Assembly: GCA_963681965.1 (NCBI GenBank)
Contig: OY820579.1
Coordinates: forward strand, 3,328,001-3,392,000
Source of the DNA: a bacterium
GTDB lineage: Bacteria > Electryoneota > JAOADG01
Direction: 5' to 3'
DNA length: 64,000 nucleotides
Shown: piece by piece, positions 39,469 through 64,000 of the stretch
How positions within the stretch are numbered: the first letter of the stretch is position 1
How the letters are laid out: the number at the start of each line of letters is the position of its first letter
Translations under genes and position numbers: made by a program
The notes under the pieces: model-generated
Databases searched by the model: none
Told to the model about the DNA's origin: nothing
What the model saw: only the letters and a program-made list of their open reading frames with translations

Positions 39469-39541
39469 GCCACCTTAGCTCAGTTGGTAGAGCAGCTGAT
39501 TCGTAATCAGCAGGTCTGCGGTTCGAGTCCGCAAGGTGGCT
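39469..39541 (+). tRNA. tRNA-Thr(CGT)
   Basis: GCCACCT/AGGTGGC acceptor stem, anticodon loop TTCGTAA, GGTTCGAGTCC T-arm; CCA not encoded. Confidence 0.96.
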
Positions 39542-39671
39542 CTAGTTGGGGATTAGGTGGTGGGTGTTGGGGAAAGATAGTAGTTGGTGATTGGTGATTG
39601 GTGCTTAGTTATAAGATGAAGATTTTGCGCGACTCGATGGGTCGCGTTTTTCATTGATTGAAGTTGACCTC

Positions 39672-56365: not shown

Positions 56366-56686
56366 GTTCAGTTCTTCGAGAATTTTCGCGACTCGACAAC
56401 TTGATTGATCGAAATTGCTGCATCCTTTCATCAATGTACCGAGCAGATAGTATCAGGTGTCAGTTGTGTAACAAAACACACTCATGGTTTCTTCGAATCG
56501 GACAAAAGCGATATTTTTGAATCAGTATTATTTGGGCACAAAGAAACCGCCTCACTTATTGATGAGGCGGTTTTAATAATTTTTATAAGTGATTCTTTGA
56601 ACTGTGTCGATCTGATCAATGAAAAACCGGAAATGCCGATTCGGCAAAGAACCGAATATTTTTAGATCATCGTCGTATTCAAGATG

Positions 56687-58357
56687 CTAGTGATTATTAC
56701 GCTCTAACGTAAATTGTTCGACGGCTTTAGATAATACTACCGTTTCATTTGCCAATTTCGCTGCTGCAGTAGCAGATTTTTCCGTTATTTGTGAATAGCT
56801 CTCGGATAATTGCGTCGCTTCGGCAACCACTTCTCTAATACTATTCACATCTGAAACTTGCTCTTGGCTTGCATTCGAAATCCAATCGATTAATTTACTG
56901 ACTTGATTAACCGATTCGACGATTTCGATCAATGCACGATAAACGGCATTGGTTAGTTCCTCACCCTCTTTTACTCGCTGAATGGAACTCTGAATCAGCG
57001 TATCCGTTTTCGCCGACGAACCGTGCGATTGTTCAGCGAGATTCTGAATATTCTTCGTTAATTCCTCGAAGCCGACACCTGCCGAATCTACGTGTGCCGC
57101 TTCGACAGCGGCGTTGATCGCAAGGAAATTGGATTCAAAAGCAATTTTATTCATTTCCTTAGTTAGTGTAACGATCGAATCTTGACTGATTGTATTGCTA
57201 GAAGTCGATGTTGTCGAAGATGTTGAAAAATCGTCTTCGATTAAATTCGCCAGTTCCTTACATCGTAACGATAATTTTCGAACTTCTCCTGCAACGACAG
57301 CAAAACCGCGAGCAGAGGCACCTACTTTTCCCGCTTCAGTAGAGGCATTCTTGGTCAATGAATCAGTCTGAGCTGTCACCGAATTGATTTCCTGCAAAAT
57401 GACTTTCGTACCCTCTGATGTCTTTAAAATATCGGTCATCGCTTTGCGTAACGAATTCATTGCTTCGTTACCCTTGTCAACCGAAGCTTTGGCTTGGTTG
57501 GAGATTTGCTTGCTTTGAAGTGCGCTTTCCGAAGTCTGCTTTGTTCTAGTGCTAATTTGTGCAAGATTATCCGAAGAAGATCGTAAGAGATTCGATTGTT
57601 GAATAGCGCCGAACATTACTTCTTGATTTGACGCAGTAATCTGTTCACCGACCATCGAAACGTTGACGACAGCAGATGCAACTTGCGAAAATGCCGAATG
57701 CAATGCAGTTAGCGACTTATTGAGAGCCTTCTTGATCTGAGCATGTTCGCCGCGGTATTTTCCATTCATCCGAATAGTCAGGTCGTAATCGGAAAGCTTG
57801 TTAAGCACATTATTGGCTTCTCGAACCGGATCGATCGTAGCGTCCAGGATTTCATTAATCCCCATGATCAGATCTTTCCAATTGCCATCGTAATCCCAGT
57901 CGTTGCCTCGGGTTTGCAATTTTCCTTCTTTGACGGCACGAATCAAATTTTGCATTTCGTGATGCATTCCGTATAGCACCGCTAAAAAGGTATTCAGGTT
58001 TCGTTTGATATCGTTATATTCACCGACGTATTCGTCGACGATAAAATCGGGAATCTTCCCGTGTGCAATTTGTTCAATTTGATTTGCCGTTAATCGTAAC
58101 GGATTGACCAGCGAATCCAGCATCGAATTAACGGCTGTAATCAATTGTGCCGAAGTTCCGGAAAATTGATCGGGATCGCCTCGTTCGCTTAGTATGCCGT
58201 TATTCATAGCCTCAGTCAAGCGGATAATCTCTTTAACGGCAAGGTCAACTTCGGAATGATTTTGGGTCAAATCTGATTTTCGATCGTTGTCTTTTTTAAC
58301 GGAAACAACCGAAGATTTTGATTTTGACGCTTTGACAGAGGGCATTTTACCGTTCAT
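56687..58357 (-). CDS. Soluble methyl-accepting chemotaxis protein (poly-HAMP-like, duplicated signalling tip)
   Basis: No TM segment; HAMP-like repeats; 'RGFAVVAGEVRKLS' and 'ESNFLAINAAVEAA'; 'ISNASQEQ'. Confidence 0.88.
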   Translation of the reverse strand: MNGKMPSVKASKSKSSVVSVKKDNDRKSDLTQNHSEVDLAVKEIIRLTEAMNNGILSERGDPDQFSGTSAQLITAVNSMLDSLVNPLRLTANQIEQIAHGKIPDFIVDEYVGEYNDIKRNLNTFLAVLYGMHHEMQNLIRAVKEGKLQTRGNDWDYDGNWKDLIMGINEILDATIDPVREANNVLNKLSDYDLTIRMNGKYRGEHAQIKKALNKSLTALHSAFSQVASAVVNVSMVGEQITASNQEVMFGAIQQSNLLRSSSDNLAQISTRTKQTSESALQSKQISNQAKASVDKGNEAMNSLRKAMTDILKTSEGTKVILQEINSVTAQTDSLTKNASTEAGKVGASARGFAVVAGEVRKLSLRCKELANLIEDDFSTSSTTSTSSNTISQDSIVTLTKEMNKIAFESNFLAINAAVEAAHVDSAGVGFEELTKNIQNLAEQSHGSSAKTDTLIQSSIQRVKEGEELTNAVYRALIEIVESVNQVSKLIDWISNASQEQVSDVNSIREVVAEATQLSESYSQITEKSATAAAKLANETVVLSKAVEQFTLERNNH

Positions 58358-58405
58358 TTTATTCTCGCTTGAAAATGTGAATAGGCAAATAGTAGTAATC
58401 AATCG

Positions 58406-58909
58406 TTACGATAGTTCACTCAATTCAATCAGATTACTCTGTTTGAGAATTCGAATTACAGTATCCATTGTCGGTTGAATTGCATCGACGACACATTCAT
58501 GCATTTCGGATCCCAATTCATCGAAGTTGCGCCCTTCAACCCCGATAAAAATCGTTCGATTCGGTTTTGTTTCGGGCGCGAGTGACGAAGCAATATCCAA
58601 CGCTTCTTTCAGACCAATTCCGTGGATTGATACGGCTGCATCGGACCGAAAAGGCAGATCGTCACCCTCTAGGATCGAAATTGTACCTGGTGCGTTACCG
58701 AACCGAACTGCATCGATAACAATCAATAAATCTTGCCCGGTTAGCAAATCGATCAATTCAAAACCGCCAACACTGAGAAATAACAATTGTACCGATGATG
58801 GTAACGACCGACCGATTAGTTTCCGGTAGATATGCCAACCGACAGCATCGTCGCCAACCAGTTCATTCCCAATGCATACTATCAGGACATTGTTAGACAA
58901 TGGTCTCAC
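58406..58909 (-). CDS. Hydrogenase maturation protease (HycI/HybD family)
   Basis: 'CIGNELVGDDAVG', 'VIDAV..G.APG', 'SIHG'. GTG start overlaps the upstream stop. Confidence 0.92.
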   Translation of the reverse strand: MRPLSNNVLIVCIGNELVGDDAVGWHIYRKLIGRSLPSSVQLLFLSVGGFELIDLLTGQDLLIVIDAVRFGNAPGTISILEGDDLPFRSDAAVSIHGIGLKEALDIASSLAPETKPNRTIFIGVEGRNFDELGSEMHECVVDAIQPTMDTVIRILKQSNLIELSELS

Positions 58910-59364
58910 CGAATTTTCATGTGAGTGCGGCATTTCTTGGCATCTGGTTCAACGTCGGATTTTACCGGTCGAAAAGTCAACTCATTGACAATACCGTCTA
59001 AATAACTGTGAAATAATTTACACAACGGTCCGCCAATCGGAAGATTCCGGTTTTCACAAACAGCCCGAATGGCACACCGTTCAATTCGCATCTCGATATT
59101 GTGGTCTTGACAAACGTAAGCGAGGTCGAAACCGTGTTTGAAGTATTCGGAAACCGATTGCATCACATTTTCGGCGTTCGGATCTGCCAGATAGATCGGG
59201 ATTTTCTTCGCCATCTCGCGACCGGTAATTCGACCGACCGAACCGGTTGCACCACCCATTAAATCGTCGATCGTATCGGAAAATATGTCCAGCAAAAAAG
59301 ACAATTCTGCGAACGCATTTTCGTGATCGACCATCGTGAGATCTTTTTCTGTTCCGGCGTTCAT
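58906..59364 (-). CDS. V4R-like (Cys-liganded small-molecule-binding) protein
   Basis: 'GRITGREMA', 'RCAIRAVC', 'GPLCKLFHSYLDGIV', final Cys. Confidence 0.7.
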   Translation of the reverse strand: MNAGTEKDLTMVDHENAFAELSFLLDIFSDTIDDLMGGATGSVGRITGREMAKKIPIYLADPNAENVMQSVSEYFKHGFDLAYVCQDHNIEMRIERCAIRAVCENRNLPIGGPLCKLFHSYLDGIVNELTFRPVKSDVEPDAKKCRTHMKIR

Positions 59365-59612
59365 AGAAATTTTCCTATCCGGTCGGTAAATTCACGATCG
59401 CGGTAAAAGTTCTTAGTGATATGGTATTCGAAATGCGTGATAGCATGAGACGGGCAAAGATAAGAGCAACTTAAACAGGCAATGCAGTCCTCGACTGTTT
59501 TCACACTGGCTTTCATCGTCATGTCATCGAATGCGAATACATCCGTTGGACAAATATCGACACACATCTGACACCCACGACATGCTTTGTCGTGAATTTC
59601 AATTCGCAGCAT
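59361..59612 (-). CDS. 2[4Fe-4S] ferredoxin
   Basis: 'CRGCQMCVDICP' and 'CIACLSCSYLCP'. Confidence 0.92.
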   Translation of the reverse strand: MLRIEIHDKACRGCQMCVDICPTDVFAFDDMTMKASVKTVEDCIACLSCSYLCPSHAITHFEYHITKNFYRDREFTDRIGKFL

Positions 59613-61029
59613 CGACTACCCTCCCGATTTGTCGAATCGTTTCGCCATTTCGACGAATATCGATCGTTAACGGCATTTTTCCAGCAGCATGAGTAGCACA
59701 TGAGAGACAGGGATCGTAGCACCGAATGGCAAACTCTACCGCATTTAGTATTTCTTTGTCATTTTTTCTTAAGACATGCGAAGTCGCTGCCTGCATAATA
59801 CCACGATTGATTGCGGTGTAATTCTGTTGGGTCGCAACGATAAGATTTGCCGATCGTACGATACCGTCTTCGTCGATTTCATAATCGTGAATCAAGGTAC
59901 CACGTGCCGCTTCGACATGACCGACACCGCGACTGCCACGGAATTTCACCGGGATCCGGGTTTCACCCCAGATTGCCGAATTGTCGACAAGGCGTCGCGC
60001 GTTTTCACAGACATAAATTAATTCGATAGCTCGGGCATAAATATGCATGATCGAGCAGTGACAGGGATGACCGAATTCCGCCCGAAAATCAAGCATTTCT
60101 TTGTTCGCGAGCGGGGTGTCGATCGAATCGATACTATTAATTCTACTCAACGTACCAACGCGGTAAGATTGCTGTTCGCTACCATTCAGAACAAACATGG
60201 GTTTCATGTAAGACCAATCCAGTGCCGTTTCTGCGATGTATTGGCAGTAATCCTTGGCAGCATATTCGTGTTTTGTAACCCCTTTATCATCAATGATGCG
60301 TAACTTCCCGTCATATAAATTCATGCGACCATCTTGAACTGTCCCCATATACCAACAGGGAATATTCCAAGTGGCAAGAATTTCTGGATTCGCCTCCATT
60401 AGTTTTCGGAAGAGCGATTTAATCACGGGAAGAAGCTCACAAGCTAACTTGAGTGCTTCGTCGGTCCATTCGACCAACGTCTTGTGTTTTTCATGATCGA
60501 GAGTAAATGAAATTCCTCCAGCAACCGACGTTACTGGGTGAATACCGCGACCACCGATCATTTCGTTGATTTTTTGACCGAGTGTTCGAAGTCGGAGTGC
60601 TTTTTTAGCGATCTCCGGTACGGCATTCACTACCCCGACTATATTTCGGGTTGCCGGATCGGAATCTAATCCCATCACCAAATCGGGACCTGACAAGACA
60701 AACAGCGATAAAACATGGGAATGAATGATGTGACCCATATATAACAGTTCACGGAGAATTTTCGCAGCGGGTGGCGGAGTGACGCCAGCGGCTTCATCAA
60801 GCGCTTTGGAAGCTGCTAGGTGATGTGCAGATGGGCAAACACCGCAAATTCTGGCAGTGATCAAAGGAACACGATCGGCTTCGACACCGACGAGGATCCG
60901 CTCAAAGCCACGCAGCTCGTTTACAACCAAGCCACCATTGATTAATTTTCCATCGTCGTCAATATCGAGAAATACCTGAGCATGACCCTCGATGCGAGTC
61001 ACTGGATCAATTGCTATTGTCCTACTCAC
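59599..61029 (-). CDS. mvhA: [NiFe] hydrogenase large subunit, group 3 (MvhA-like)
   Basis: 'PVTRIEGH', L1 'RICGVC..H', L2 'YDPCLSCATH', plus a cleavable C-terminal extension. Confidence 0.9.
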   Translation of the reverse strand: MSRTIAIDPVTRIEGHAQVFLDIDDDGKLINGGLVVNELRGFERILVGVEADRVPLITARICGVCPSAHHLAASKALDEAAGVTPPPAAKILRELLYMGHIIHSHVLSLFVLSGPDLVMGLDSDPATRNIVGVVNAVPEIAKKALRLRTLGQKINEMIGGRGIHPVTSVAGGISFTLDHEKHKTLVEWTDEALKLACELLPVIKSLFRKLMEANPEILATWNIPCWYMGTVQDGRMNLYDGKLRIIDDKGVTKHEYAAKDYCQYIAETALDWSYMKPMFVLNGSEQQSYRVGTLSRINSIDSIDTPLANKEMLDFRAEFGHPCHCSIMHIYARAIELIYVCENARRLVDNSAIWGETRIPVKFRGSRGVGHVEAARGTLIHDYEIDEDGIVRSANLIVATQQNYTAINRGIMQAATSHVLRKNDKEILNAVEFAIRCYDPCLSCATHAAGKMPLTIDIRRNGETIRQIGRVVDAAN

Positions 61030-61964
61030 AGTTTCTCCTCTTCTACTTCTTCGATCCATTTCTTGATCAGAAAGGTCGGTTTTTGTCCGATCATTTTCGA
61101 AGCCATAGCATAGGCATAATGCGATTTTGCTTGACGTTCGATCGTTCGTTTGATATCTGTATCGGGAATCTTAGTCAACCGGCTCATTCGATCTGCCAAC
61201 TCGGTTCTGATGTCGCGATTCGGTTCGGTTAGCACTTGCATCGTCGGTCCAGCGCATCCGGTACAGGTTACGCCGTTGATGGGACAAGGAGCTAAGCAGC
61301 GATCCAAAGTAATCGAACCGAGACATAAATATCCTTGGCTCAATAAACAAGTCTCTTTTTCCGGTATCCCATCGTGATTTTGTTTCAATTTCGATACGTC
61401 GGTTTTCTTCATCGTCCGTTCACAACTCGCACAAACCGATTCATCTTTCGCCTTAGGCGCTCGATCGTTCACCAGAGCTAGTAGCGCATCGAAGATAAAC
61501 GCGGCGTGTGGCGGACAACCCGGTAAATACAGATCGACCGGTATTACTTCGTCTAGCGGTGTTACCAGTTTCTCAAGTTTGGAGACTTTCGACATCGGCG
61601 ATGTGTGGGTTACCGTGGTTTTATTCTCTACGTATACGGTATTCAAAATATCTTCGCGAGAATAAACAATGCTTGCGCCGGGAATTCCACCGTAAGCAGC
61701 ACAGGTTCCGAATGCTACGATCTTCTTGCAGCTTTTACGCATTTCGATCGCGGCATGACGATCATGCTCGCTACGGATAGCTCCCGAAACTAATCCCAAG
61801 TCGGCGGGAGGATAATCTTTGATATCCGTTAAAACGGGACAGTGTTGAATCTCGGCAACGCCCAGGATATCCAGAATCTTTTCATGTAAATCGACGATAC
61901 CGACATGACATCCGCCACAATCGCTCAACCATTCAATGTTGATTTTAATTTTTTGAGCGCTCAT
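61026..61964 (-). CDS. mvhG: [NiFe] hydrogenase small subunit (MvhG-like), no Tat signal
   Basis: 'DCGGC', 'GTCAAYGG', 'LPGCPP', 'CASC', 'CLL..GYLCLG..T...C.A.C....CTGC.GP'. Confidence 0.9.
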   Translation of the reverse strand: MSAQKIKINIEWLSDCGGCHVGIVDLHEKILDILGVAEIQHCPVLTDIKDYPPADLGLVSGAIRSEHDRHAAIEMRKSCKKIVAFGTCAAYGGIPGASIVYSREDILNTVYVENKTTVTHTSPMSKVSKLEKLVTPLDEVIPVDLYLPGCPPHAAFIFDALLALVNDRAPKAKDESVCASCERTMKKTDVSKLKQNHDGIPEKETCLLSQGYLCLGSITLDRCLAPCPINGVTCTGCAGPTMQVLTEPNRDIRTELADRMSRLTKIPDTDIKRTIERQAKSHYAYAMASKMIGQKPTFLIKKWIEEVEEEKL

Positions 61965-61990
61965 TTGTCGTCTACTCCAGTATAAGTCAA

Positions 61991-62512
61991 TTATGATTGC
62001 ATTGGTTGGGAACCGTTTTTAGTAGTGTCAACAGTAACTCGTTTATAACACGCATTCTCACCAGCGTGAATAATCTCCAAGGTCGATAGATGACCGGTGA
62101 TCGATTCCAATGCTGCTGAAATAAACCCGTTTGAGATATGACACAGCGAGCCTTTTTGCGGGTGACCGTATCGGAACAGTGCTTGTCTAATCATACAATC
62201 GCGAAAGACCAGCATCACTTCGTAACCATTCTCTTTAACGACTTTGAGTTCGGGTTGAGTAGAAGGTTTAAAACACTCGATGTGCCACATACATTTATTG
62301 GCTATGAGTAACTCATTGACTTCGAGCAACGCATCTTGGATATCGTCGGTGTGCTTCGCATTTTGCGATAAGTTCTGACCTAATTTCTCGCCTGCTTTAT
62401 AACAGATACTGGTTGCGGTTTCGCCTAACGTTTCCTCCATCCCACATGCTAAGGCACCGAGAAAATTCATCGTTTCTTGAACTAGTTGTCGCTGAGTTTC
62501 CAGGTTATCCAT
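61991..62512 (-). CDS. V4R-like protein
   Basis: 'AGEKLG', 'FRDCMIRQ', 'SLCHISNGFISAALE..TG', 'GENAC'. ATG 62512 follows GAGGTG. Confidence 0.72.
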   Translation of the reverse strand: MDNLETQRQLVQETMNFLGALACGMEETLGETATSICYKAGEKLGQNLSQNAKHTDDIQDALLEVNELLIANKCMWHIECFKPSTQPELKVVKENGYEVMLVFRDCMIRQALFRYGHPQKGSLCHISNGFISAALESITGHLSTLEIIHAGENACYKRVTVDTTKNGSQPMQS

Positions 62513-63043
62513 CTGCGTCACCTCTTGAGAGATAAGTCGTGCAATTTCGCCATCTCGATATGAATGAGATCTTCCGATCAATATTTCCGTTTTAGCTTAC
62601 AGTCGGTATCGGCTTTGTCAGTTTACGCAGGTAGGATAGGACGATTAGTTGTAAACGATTGAGTCGTGGCTGTAGTATTATTGGTTGATTAGATGAGATC
62701 GCATTCACCCTTTCAAAGTAGTTCGTGGATTTAAAGAAGGACAATTGAAATCGTCTAATGTTAAAGCGAGATCAGGGCTGTCACAAGTATTTTCGGAGAA
62801 AACGGAAGAATTCTTTACGCTCATTTACAAAATATTTCATATTGTTACTGTTTTAATTTAATTTGTACTGTATACTAATTGTAATCTTAGCGAATTTATA
62901 TCGGTGCTGATGAAATTTTTATGTAACATAGATCAACATTTCTTGTTCATTTTCGACTGATACAGTAATTTGTGAAACGATATTGAACACAACATATCAG
63001 TAAGAATCTGACTGAGTCATTTTAAATTGTGGCTACTTATACT

Positions 63044-63280: not shown

Positions 63281-63338
63281 GTAGAGCAGCTGATACATAA
63301 TCAGCAGGTCTGCGGTTCGAGTCCGCAAGGTGGCTCTA
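63281..63338 (+). pseudogene. Truncated tRNA-Thr copy (attR-like)
   Basis: 56/58 identity to 39487-39544; lacks the 5' acceptor strand; anticodon loop mutated to TACATAA. Confidence 0.88.
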
Positions 63339-63862
63339 ATTGGGTGGTGGGTGATGGGTGGTGGGAAAAGATGGTAGTTGGTGATTAGTGCTTGGTAAAA
63401 AATTAGATGCGGCTCATTGGGTTGCGTTTTTCATTTTAGATCTATTGCAATCGTGCAAGAATATCTGCGGTTCATGGGCAAGAATCTGATTAAAGTGGCT
63501 TCGGATATCTTTCACCACGCAATCGACTGATAGCGAAATTGAGACTGTTAATACAATAATACAATGCGAATATGGAAGCGATAGCGAAATAAGCTTGATA
63601 TTTCACCATAACATCCCCGGAACGAACTATCTACTGGGCATTTCCACGTTATCCCGGTTTCTCCATCTTATTATGATCCAGCTAACAGCAAAATCGTGCT
63701 AAAAAACAACACAACTAGTGCATTTTATCCCTACATTGTCTTATCTTTAATATTACTAATATTGCCAATTACTGTCCTGTAGAGTGGATAGCACGATAGC
63801 CCTTTGAATTTTAGACCTGATTTCCACCTAATTCGCATCTCGACTCAACGCCCGGAGTCCTT

Positions 63863-64000
63863 ATGGTACGATCTTTACGACGGCTGTACTGCTACACCGC
63901 CCCCGCTGGAAAACGCTCTCTGCTGTCGATCGCGCTACTGGTGCTGGTATTCTGCTCGCTTCATCCTGCGATGGCAGCTTCTTCACCACGCTCTCCCGCG
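63863..64000 (+). CDS. 5' end of a secreted or membrane protein (runs off the window)
   Basis: GGAG RBS, open frame 'MVRSLRR...SLLSIALLVLVFCSLHPAMAA'. Confidence 0.6.
   Translation, partial: MVRSLRRLYCYTAPAGKRSLLSIALLVLVFCSLHPAMAASSPRSPA

Follow-up and report, generated by a model that had tools for sequence, protein, structure and literature searches.

A seven-gene operon on the minus strand of a 64,000-nucleotide stretch of bacterial DNA (GTDB lineage Electryoneota, JAOADG01; GenBank assembly GCA_963681965.1, contig OY820579.1, positions 3,328,001 to 3,392,000; hereafter the window, from whose first letter positions are counted) encodes a [NiFe]-hydrogenase, a ferredoxin, two paralogous V4R-fold proteins, a maturation protease and a soluble methyl-accepting chemotaxis protein (MCP). 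The operon probably constitutes a self-contained cytoplasmic [NiFe]-hydrogenase signalling module by which the cell steers in response to H2 or redox state. This reading, to which we assign a probability of roughly 0.55, combines inference with one weak structural prediction.

Organization of the operon

The ORF (open reading frame) list of the window places seven minus-strand ORFs between positions 56687 and 62581. From the 5' end of the operon, they are as follows:

61991..62512 (ORF 61991-62581), minus strand: V4Ra, a 173-amino-acid (aa) protein of the V4R/Bet3 fold (ORF, alignment, AlphaFold2 predicted local distance difference test [pLDDT] 83.6, Foldseek)
61026..61964, minus strand: [NiFe]-hydrogenase small subunit, MvhG/VhuG-like (Pfam Oxidored_q6, NCBIfam VhuG, cysteine columns compared with MvhG)
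59599..61059 (probable start 61029, 476 aa), minus strand: [NiFe]-hydrogenase large subunit (Pfam NiFeSe_Hases, NCBIfam VhuA, motifs, tree)
59361..59612, minus strand: 2x[4Fe-4S] ferredoxin of 83 aa (Pfam Fer4_7, Fer4)
58906..59364, minus strand: V4Rb, a 152-aa paralog of V4Ra (hhalign, alignment, AlphaFold2 pLDDT 87.1, Foldseek)
58406..58933, minus strand: hydrogenase maturation endopeptidase of the HybD/HycI type (Pfam HycI, 62.8 bits; TIGR00072, 109.4 bits against a cut-off of 47.45)
56687..58402 (571-aa frame; an ATG at 58357 would give 556 aa), minus strand: soluble MCP (Pfam, NCBIfam, hydropathy)

Four of the six junctions overlap (-4, -14, -4 and -28 nt); at the remaining two, the genes are separated by 26 nt and by either 3 or 48 nt, the latter set by the choice of MCP start. 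The co-oriented, mostly overlapping arrangement given in a preliminary description, made from the sequence alone, is confirmed by the ORF list and by Pfam and NCBIfam, which together identify five of the seven products. The arrangement lies far beyond chance: all 50 close loci share the six-gene core (see below). No match to FlpD/MvhD, Hdr or diaphorase was found for any of the seven proteins in Pfam or NCBIfam. Moreover, the small subunit lacks a twin-arginine (RR) motif, and no 19-residue window with a Kyte-Doolittle mean above 1.5 occurs in any of the seven proteins, all of which therefore look soluble. These family, motif and hydropathy scans bear out the earlier statement that the operon contains no MvhD, Hdr, diaphorase, twin-arginine translocation (Tat) signal or membrane anchor.

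The hydrogenase and its clade

The large subunit carries both Ni-Fe motifs, RICGVCP near the N-terminus and DPCLSCATH near the C-terminus, and extends 29 residues past the latter. Such a tail fits maturation by the operon's own protease, which retains GNxxxxDD, DAV and SIHG, taken here to be the functional motifs of a maturation protease; the proteolytic maturation that had been proposed for this enzyme is upheld by the two features together. All 12 cysteines of the small subunit align with the ligand columns of the three [4Fe-4S] clusters of canonical MvhG, from which the protein differs by three deletions and a distinct conserved C-terminus. A novel C-terminal extension had been suspected, and the alignment revealed instead a divergent C-terminus of normal length. 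The best NCBIfam match of the large subunit is VhuA (388.9 bits, below the 800-bit cut-off) and that of the small subunit is VhuG (228 bits, below the 450-bit cut-off), and among solved structures the large subunit comes closest to MvhA of the Hdr-Mvh complex (5ODC_F, E 7.9e-110).

A quick maximum-likelihood tree (LG+G4) was built from 83 large subunits, namely the window enzyme, its four paralogs in the host genome and those of 78 of the 80 fetched loci; two loci, one frameshifted and short (L059) and one partial (L090), were left out. In this tree, a branch of length 0.66 separates the clade of the window enzyme, here called the cassette clade after its conserved gene set, from the Hdr-linked clade, with a support of 100 in the Shimodaira-Hasegawa-like approximate likelihood ratio test (SH-aLRT). 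The bipartition sets 49 cassette rows against 31 Hdr-linked rows, with an SH-aLRT of 100 for both, and both MvhD-linked paralogs of the host genome fall among the Hdr-linked enzymes. Judged by its sequence, the hydrogenase is a sister lineage of classical group 3c that lies outside the Hdr-linked clade: it has the Ni-Fe ligand motifs and the MvhA/VhuA nearest relatives of group 3c, whereas the MvhD/HdrABC partners and a placement in the Hdr clade are absent. Nor does it belong to group 2b, since a C-terminal tail is present, a protease gene lies in the operon and the partner gene is an MCP. The host genome encodes five [NiFe] large subunits in all, and its two FlpD/MvhD genes adjoin two other Mvh-type loci, at 4.037 Mb and 0.136 Mb. 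With two canonical MvhD-linked hydrogenases elsewhere in the genome, metabolic Mvh/Hdr function is already covered.

Co-inheritance of the cassette and the chemoreceptor

The locus sample consisted of the best 80 of at least 585 large-subunit matches in genome contigs, among which 50 loci with at least 53% large-subunit identity were taken as cassette loci and 30 loci at 37-46% identity as a comparison set. The core order of V4R-fold protein, small subunit, large subunit, 2x[4Fe-4S] ferredoxin, V4R-fold paralog and protease was found in 50 of 50 cassette loci; the ferredoxin itself is present in 49, and the fiftieth (L090) stops inside the large-subunit gene. An MvhD, Hdr or flavoprotein acceptor module is absent from, and beside, all 50. 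In the comparison set, a large ferredoxin-domain protein, probably HdrA-like to judge by its position and size, precedes the small and large subunits in 23 of 30 loci, and a protease is found in 21 of 30.

Downstream of the protease, a soluble poly-HAMP MCP is encoded in 22 of the 50 cassette loci, and two further loci (L019 and L090) end before the MCP position. The gene-neighbourhood comparison suggested at the outset thus gave a divided answer: the predicted co-conservation of both V4R-fold genes and the ferredoxin with the hydrogenase holds in 50 of 50 clade members, whereas the MCP accompanies only 22. The MCP-linked loci form, with L019 and the window, one subclade of 23 rows (SH-aLRT 98) drawn from Geobacterales, a Desulfobacteraceae metagenome-assembled genome (MAG), Acidobacteriota, Latescibacterota and the present lineage. 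Since MCP identity within this group is only 37-48%, the linkage between MCP and cassette is old.

The association was also surveyed in reverse, in 151 genomes of the order around Geobacter hydrogenophilus (MCP ortholog at E<=1e-40, V4Ra at E<=1e-20). The MCP ortholog occurs in 39 of these genomes and V4Ra in 41, and all 39 genomes with the MCP also have V4Ra; the two genes lie approx. 4 kb apart on the same contig in 37 of the 39, that is, wherever both share a contig. In the two genomes with V4Ra only, it is represented by a 41%-identical copy with an internal stop and by a fragment at a contig edge. The orthologs are sharply set apart, scoring 464-1126 bits against at most 78 bits for other MCPs, and two genomes with MCP-less cassettes have no MCP ortholog genome-wide (best score, 46.7 bits). 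By these comparisons, the MCP is exclusively coupled to the cassette, in a co-inheritance as strong as comparative genomics allows, and the proposed tie between the two is sustained in that the MCP ortholog never occurs without the cassette (39/39 in the 151 Geobacterales genomes).

In 13 Geobacterales loci, the gene immediately upstream of V4Ra is cheW. Of 60 relatives from the phylum of the window, three carry V4Ra, which was not found in a genome of the same genus (96% complete). Two of the three show the full seven-gene order (V4Ra identity 54% and 51%), and in the third the contig ends inside V4Rb.

The flanks of the MCP-less cassettes were scanned through 94 ORFs of 24 of the 26 such loci (for L034 and L039, on the upstream side only). 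In a subclade of Myxococcota and Geothermobacter, a Roadblock/LC7 (MglB-like) gene lies directly upstream on the same strand in four of four loci (L046:8128-8484, L049:8136-8492, L055:4292-4651 and L058:7806-8567), being fused to DUF4388 in the last. In 4 of 22 Desulfobulbales loci (L036:3259-8067, L037, L048 and L057), the cassette is accompanied by a divergent PAS/GAF histidine kinase and a REC-DUF4388-Roadblock regulator, and a sigma54 regulator is confirmed by Pfam in L036 and L048. Other neighbours of the Desulfobulbales cassettes, without an obvious part in signalling, include PCMT upstream (7 of 22 loci), a VTT protein and a trypsin-like protease upstream, and, downstream on the opposite strand, LarA/GntR. 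Three kinds of signalling neighbour thus recur by the cassette, though not everywhere.

As a separate, single case, a canonical Mvh-type locus without the cassette, from a Myxococcota MAG (L081:3558-9305), has CheB, MCP, CheW and CheA genes downstream on the opposite strand.

The V4R-fold proteins and the ferredoxin

Neither V4Ra nor V4Rb matches Pfam V4R (PF02830) at E<=0.01; they give only sub-threshold matches to ATC_hydrolase, and profile searches against PDB sequences returned nothing meaningful for either. Among their relatives, a weak, sub-threshold V4R match is found in 15 of 24 for V4Ra (best E 0.0034) and in 1 of 24 for V4Rb, and 18 of 24 V4Rb relatives match ATC_hydrolase (best E 2.2e-7). 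The two proteins are paralogous (hhalign probability 97.3%, E 2.3e-11), and AlphaFold2 models built on 24-row alignments (pLDDT as listed above) both fall on the V4R/Bet3 fold in Foldseek with a probability of 1.00, template modelling (TM) scores of 0.5-0.64 and 8-18% identity. The top matches of V4Ra are the phenol-sensor domains of PoxR, MopR and DmpR and also Bet3; V4Rb matches BcsD, YslB, Bet3 and PoxR; and taken together the pair matches PoxR, MopR, DmpR, Bet3/TRAPP, BcsD/CesD and YslB. The label V4R given in the preliminary description therefore stands at the level of predicted fold and of weak matches among relatives, and not as a Pfam assignment of the window proteins themselves.

In alignments of relatives, C106, H117, C124, H149 and C155 of V4Ra and C97, C103, C115, H119 and C145 of V4Rb are invariant. 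In V4R sensor domains of the MopR/PoxR type, a structural zinc is bound by cysteine ligands, and the V4R domain of the methanogen regulator MsvR senses redox state via cysteines; by analogy, the Cys/His sets of V4Ra and V4Rb could support chemistry of either the zinc or the cysteine-redox type.

The V4Ra family is small, with 115 clusters (50% identity) at E<=1e-3 among 1.84 billion representatives. One of the proteins recovered by the V4Ra profile, P0144 (231 aa), is a natural fusion of a 2x[4Fe-4S] ferredoxin with a V4Ra-like domain, and P0209 and similar proteins of approx. 300 aa carry two V4R-like halves in tandem. These fusions argue for contact between ferredoxin and V4R protein and for pairing of the two paralogs. 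No longer, fused relatives of V4Rb were found at E<=0.001 among 7998 candidates, which is weak evidence of absence. The two paralogs also differ in how they vary across the clade: V4Ra is 48-57% identical to the window copy throughout, in MCP-linked and MCP-less cassettes alike, whereas V4Rb is 38-51% identical in MCP-linked loci and 28-37% in MCP-less ones. A further architecture, observed in P0164 (722 aa), joins a TCAD9-containing region to a V4Ra-like domain.

The chemoreceptor and the host chemosensory genes

The MCP consists of a short variable N-terminus, a HAMP_2 array (119 bits) and an MCPsignal domain (108 bits; cut-off 34.6). Pfam, NCBIfam and hydropathy analysis found no sensor domain and no transmembrane segment, and, with HAMP_2 and MCPsignal the only domains matched, the MCP is rightly described as a chemoreceptor without a recognisable sensor domain of its own. 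Across 20 orthologs (37-48% identity), many HAMP positions are invariant. The signalling domain contains two hairpin-tip motifs instead of one, 78 residues apart and joined by a Ser/Thr-rich linker; they span positions 57014-57391 of the window (MCP residues ~338-463 of the 571-aa frame). The parts of the protein are:

57653..58225, minus strand: HAMP_2 array, approx. residues 60-250 of the 571-aa frame (Pfam HAMP_2/HAMP, invariant columns)
57248..57391, minus strand: hairpin-tip motif 1, which keeps GFAVVAGEVRKLS, with a degenerate pre-tip half (alignment to canonical tip)
57014..57157, minus strand: hairpin-tip motif 2, which keeps IAFESNFLAINAAVEAAH, with a degenerate post-tip half (alignment to canonical tip)

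In particular, motif 1 retains the post-tip half GFAVVAxEVRKL and motif 2 the pre-tip half NxLAxNAAVEAAH. Aligned to a canonical MCP tip of the same genome, the two motifs score z 17.6 and z 15.4, respectively, with 0 of 500 shuffles as high in either case, and they score z 5.5 against each other. Both are present in every aligned ortholog. Their sequences point to a partial internal duplication with complementary decay and not to two full signalling domains; the motifs may build a second small hairpin beside the tip, or a two-tip receptor. DosM of Vibrio cholerae is a cytoplasmic chemoreceptor with a double signalling domain, and the window MCP resembles it as a soluble MCP with more than one hairpin-tip motif; the window tips differ in being only 78 residues apart, with complementary decayed halves. 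In one uncultured deltaproteobacterial MAG (L030:5043-7115), the protease and the MCP occupy a single open frame, which may be a real fusion or an assembly error.

The host genome has one complete chemosensory cluster (CheA, CheW, CheD, CheR, CheB, CheY, CheX and an HDOD protein), and in addition a second CheW, five MCP loci, FlhA and HypD. The genome search that had been advised thus returned CheA/CheW and HypD, with the two MvhD genes beside other hydrogenases.

Proposed mechanism and predicted contact

In the proposed mechanism, H2 would be oxidised at the Ni-Fe site, and the electrons, relayed by the three small-subunit clusters to the ferredoxin, would determine which redox or conformational state the V4Ra/V4Rb pair adopts. 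V4Rb would then dock on the HAMP array of the dedicated, sensor-less MCP, which would modulate the single CheA/CheW pathway of the genome and flagellar behaviour, giving a response to H2 or to the redox poise read by the enzyme.

One step of this scheme, the contact between V4Rb and the MCP, was examined by complex prediction, as had been suggested. V4Rb was chosen because it differs more than V4Ra between MCP-linked and MCP-less cassettes, and the input combined V4Rb with two copies of MCP residues 38-250 on custom alignments. The V4Rb-HAMP dimer complex reached an ipSAE (interaction prediction score from aligned errors) of 0.53 (runs of 0.53, 0.52 and 0.53), against 0.00 for the best of three controls; the runs share at least 92% of their contacts, with a partner pLDDT of 81 or more. 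In a calibration that is only roughly applicable to this input, 58 of 80 solved complexes attained the ipSAE mark, as did 2 of 110 mismatched pairs, and only 7 of those 80 complexes, but both passing mismatches, did so with values of 0.60 or less. A score of 0.53 thus falls in a band where predictions err more often than not, unless there was good prior reason for the guess. The predicted contact lends weak support, adding modestly to a hypothesis for which the genomic comparisons already spoke.

Objections and alternative explanations

That caveat on the score is one of several points that weigh against a dedicated sensory module. The enzyme looks fully catalytic, with a three-cluster relay, a ferredoxin, a C-terminal tail and its own protease, whereas the characterised H2 sensors of group 2b have neither such a tail nor a protease. 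In the sample, 26 of 50 cassette loci have no MCP (in L034, only 171 nt are available beyond the protease), so that the cassette must be able to function without the chemoreceptor, and in 14 of the 22 Desulfobulbales loci no signalling gene was found beside the cassette. The window operon has no adjacent cheW. Finally, the genomes compared are kin and not independent, and the co-occurrence counts overstate the number of independent events.

Several of these points are shared by the main rival, which is unlikely: a metabolic cytoplasmic hydrogenase in which the ferredoxin and the V4R pair take the place of MvhD/Hdr as subunits for electron transfer or substrate binding, for example in ferredoxin-linked H2 evolution or in the reduction of a small acceptor, with the MCP only monitoring the enzyme (energy taxis) or sharing its regulation. 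It accommodates the 26 loci without an MCP, and the relay, ferredoxin and proteolytic maturation are as in catalytic enzymes. The ferredoxin-V4R fusion P0144 would fit an electron-transfer partnership, and, as a lead only, rubredoxin-C-terminal and MJ0207 families are among the feature-based clusters nearest to V4Rb. However, electron transfer from H2 to ferredoxin alone is thermodynamically uphill, and no Hdr, MvhD, diaphorase or flavoprotein is encoded in or beside any of the 50 cassettes. The host already possesses two MvhD-linked and two further [NiFe] hydrogenases, and the recurrence of three different kinds of signalling gene beside the cassette also speaks against this rival. Moreover, Mvh is dispensable for H2-dependent growth in G. 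sulfurreducens, according to the relevant passages of PMC7894505.

A second alternative, which we regard as improbable, makes the V4R-fold proteins the true sensors, of a small hydrophobic or aromatic ligand in the manner of PoxR, MopR and DmpR; the hydrogenase and ferredoxin would keep a Cys/metal centre reduced or reset it, and the MCP would report the ligand and not H2. The closest solved folds are indeed the ligand-binding V4R domains of these regulators, and both V4R-fold proteins are kept with every cassette. The similarity is nonetheless distant (TM only 0.5-0.6, identity 8-18%), proteins that are not such sensors (BcsD, YslB and Bet3) match equally, and the constant attachment of a complete hydrogenase is left unexplained. 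That the MCP is a chance neighbour on a mobile island, without a functional tie to the hydrogenase, is very improbable indeed: although the operon lacks cheW and shares a tRNA-bounded segment of lower GC content with unrelated cargo, this idea is already contradicted by the MCP-linked subclade, which spans several phyla at 37-48% MCP identity, and by the Geobacterales co-occurrence, and in many loci the protease gene adjoins or overlaps that of the MCP, the two forming the single frame of L030.

Relation to known systems

The preliminary description was right to point to a Geobacter Mvh locus next to chemotaxis genes: in G. sulfurreducens, Mvh corresponds to GSU2416-2423 and includes an MCP named MvhV, and no function is reported for the cluster in the passages of PMC7894505 and PMC8691401 that deal with it. 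These papers name Hyb as the one uptake hydrogenase required for growth on H2 and ascribe no H2 consumption to Mvh. In the Geobacter, Geomonas and Desulfuromonadaceae loci of the sample, the same genes stand in the same order; the large subunit there is 59-63% and the MCP 37-43% identical to the window proteins. Seven of the eight genes of the Geobacter cluster are present in the same order in the window (phmmer E 1e-26 to 1e-217); the eighth, cheW, found upstream in the 13 Geobacterales loci, is missing. The window operon is thus probably a member of the cluster GSU2416-2423, an equivalence drawn through other Geobacter loci. What is new is its occurrence without cheW in a Bacteroidota-related lineage, on a 24-kb segment bounded by tRNA-Thr, together with the two tip motifs of the MCP. 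The locus can be viewed as a horizontally placed member of the Geobacter mvh cluster, its arrival being plausible and not proven, and the system as a plausible variant among sensory hydrogenases.

With MvhAGD-HdrABC (group 3c, 5ODC), the operon shares the Ni-Fe motifs, the 12 small-subunit cysteines, a cytoplasmic location and maturation by a protease. It differs in having a ferredoxin and two V4R-fold proteins in place of MvhD/Hdr, in belonging to its own clade, in the three deletions and distinct C-terminus of the small subunit, and in VhuA/VhuG scores far under the cut-offs. The group 2b sensors (HoxBC-HoxJ and HupUV-HupT) are similar in concept, being cytoplasmic [NiFe] enzymes read by a signalling protein, in the descriptions given in parts of PMC5037454 and PMC6978683, and four MCP-less cassette loci adjoin a histidine kinase, two of them with a confirmed sigma54 regulator. 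In contrast, the window enzyme belongs to another group, has a C-terminal tail and a dedicated protease, has an MCP and not a PAS kinase as its output, and adds V4R-fold adaptors and a ferredoxin. A comparable association in HydDB is that of [FeFe] group C2, listed as 'chemotactic (putative)' in PMC5037454: there, too, a hydrogenase is genetically tied to an MCP and the role is likewise putative, but the enzyme is an [FeFe] and not a [NiFe] hydrogenase. In the portion of PMC5037454 devoted to the classification, the sensory classes are [NiFe] 2b (kinase), [NiFe] 2c (diguanylate cyclase, putative) and [FeFe] C1-C3, with 3c defined as Hdr-linked, and its table contains no MCP-linked [NiFe] class.

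The main texts of PMC2577667 (Geobacter chemotaxis), PMC8396549 (a 2021 review) and PMC5585712 (transposon sequencing) contain neither hydrogenase nor Mvh nor the locus tags sought, and a full-text literature search brought up no article on the present system. The system is thus already annotated in Geobacter but uncharacterised, and HydDB has no class for it.

A broader proposition is more tentative, and we place it somewhat short of an even chance: the V4R-ferredoxin-[NiFe] cassette would be a third independent class of H2/redox-sensing hydrogenase, after [NiFe] 2b and [FeFe] C, in which the V4R pair serves as a plug-in adaptor to varied outputs and which spreads between phyla as a mobile unit, the present operon encoding the first dedicated bacterial H2 chemoreceptor. 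On this proposition, the outputs would be MCP/CheW in the window and Geobacter, Roadblock/LC7 (MglB-like) proteins in loci of the Myxococcota type, and, in part of the Desulfobulbales, a histidine kinase together with REC-Roadblock and sigma54 regulators.

Genomic setting

The operon was also described as cargo of an island, a claim that is supported by a direct repeat of the 3' part of a tRNA gene and is not matched by an integrase. The boundaries of the putative island, and a possible terminator of the operon, are:

39469..39542, plus strand: tRNA-Thr(CGT), left boundary of the putative island (repeat comparison)
63281..63344, plus strand: direct repeat of the 3' 56 nt of tRNA-Thr and downstream bases, right boundary (95% over 64 nt)
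56543..56574, unstranded: 12-bp palindromic hairpin, a possible terminator, 113 nt 3' of the MCP stop (consensus scan, 11 found against 7.7 expected)

The repeat lies on the same strand as the tRNA, and the anticodon region is altered in the copy (39469-39570 compared with 63281-63365). The two repeats enclose 23.8 kb, and the guanine-plus-cytosine (GC) content is 0.36-0.475 across 40-64 kb of the window, against 0.4735 for the genome. Besides the operon, the segment encodes beta-helix proteins of 1183 and 2088 aa with type IX secretion tails (Por_Secre_tail), and ORFs without family matches. No integrase family was found in the ORFs tested, and a 327-aa ORF next to tRNA-Thr has no Pfam family at E<=0.05. 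The repeat and the patchy distribution among relatives make horizontal arrival of the segment plausible; they do not prove it. A promoter scan gave 17 sites against 15.7 expected by chance and supports no inference.

Three further observations concern the surroundings and the wider genome. Just past the right repeat, a 3879-aa ORF with LVIVD repeats begins (window 63863-64000; L092:1863-13502). Approx. 14-29 kb past the window (host contig 3406001-3421000, L093), genes for a receiver protein, a 998-aa MCP (4HB and several HAMPs), CheW, a PAS protein, a B12-binding protein, a URO-D/MtaA-like protein and a large PAS-GAF hybrid kinase are clustered, with a DDE transposase adjoining; this may be a corrinoid-linked chemosensory unit. 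Elsewhere on the host contig (1390603-1401062), an 813-aa MCP is encoded approx. 6.6 kb upstream of the fifth, divergent [NiFe] large subunit (473 aa, long branch), which may be coincidence.

Significance

H2 is a central currency of anaerobic communities. To our knowledge, no bacterial receptor for H2 taxis is known, and the H2 sensors characterised so far control transcription. The module described here is a concrete candidate for H2 taxis and is present in genetically tractable Geobacter species. It also suggests that the cytoplasmic [NiFe] hydrogenases include an unrecognised subgroup, now filed under the Hdr-linked group 3c; because such an enzyme is then read as an electron-bifurcating Mvh/Hdr, this filing may mislead metabolic reconstructions from metagenomes. 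Finally, the operon offers a first plausible role for a small family of stand-alone V4R-fold proteins with conserved cysteine and histidine residues.

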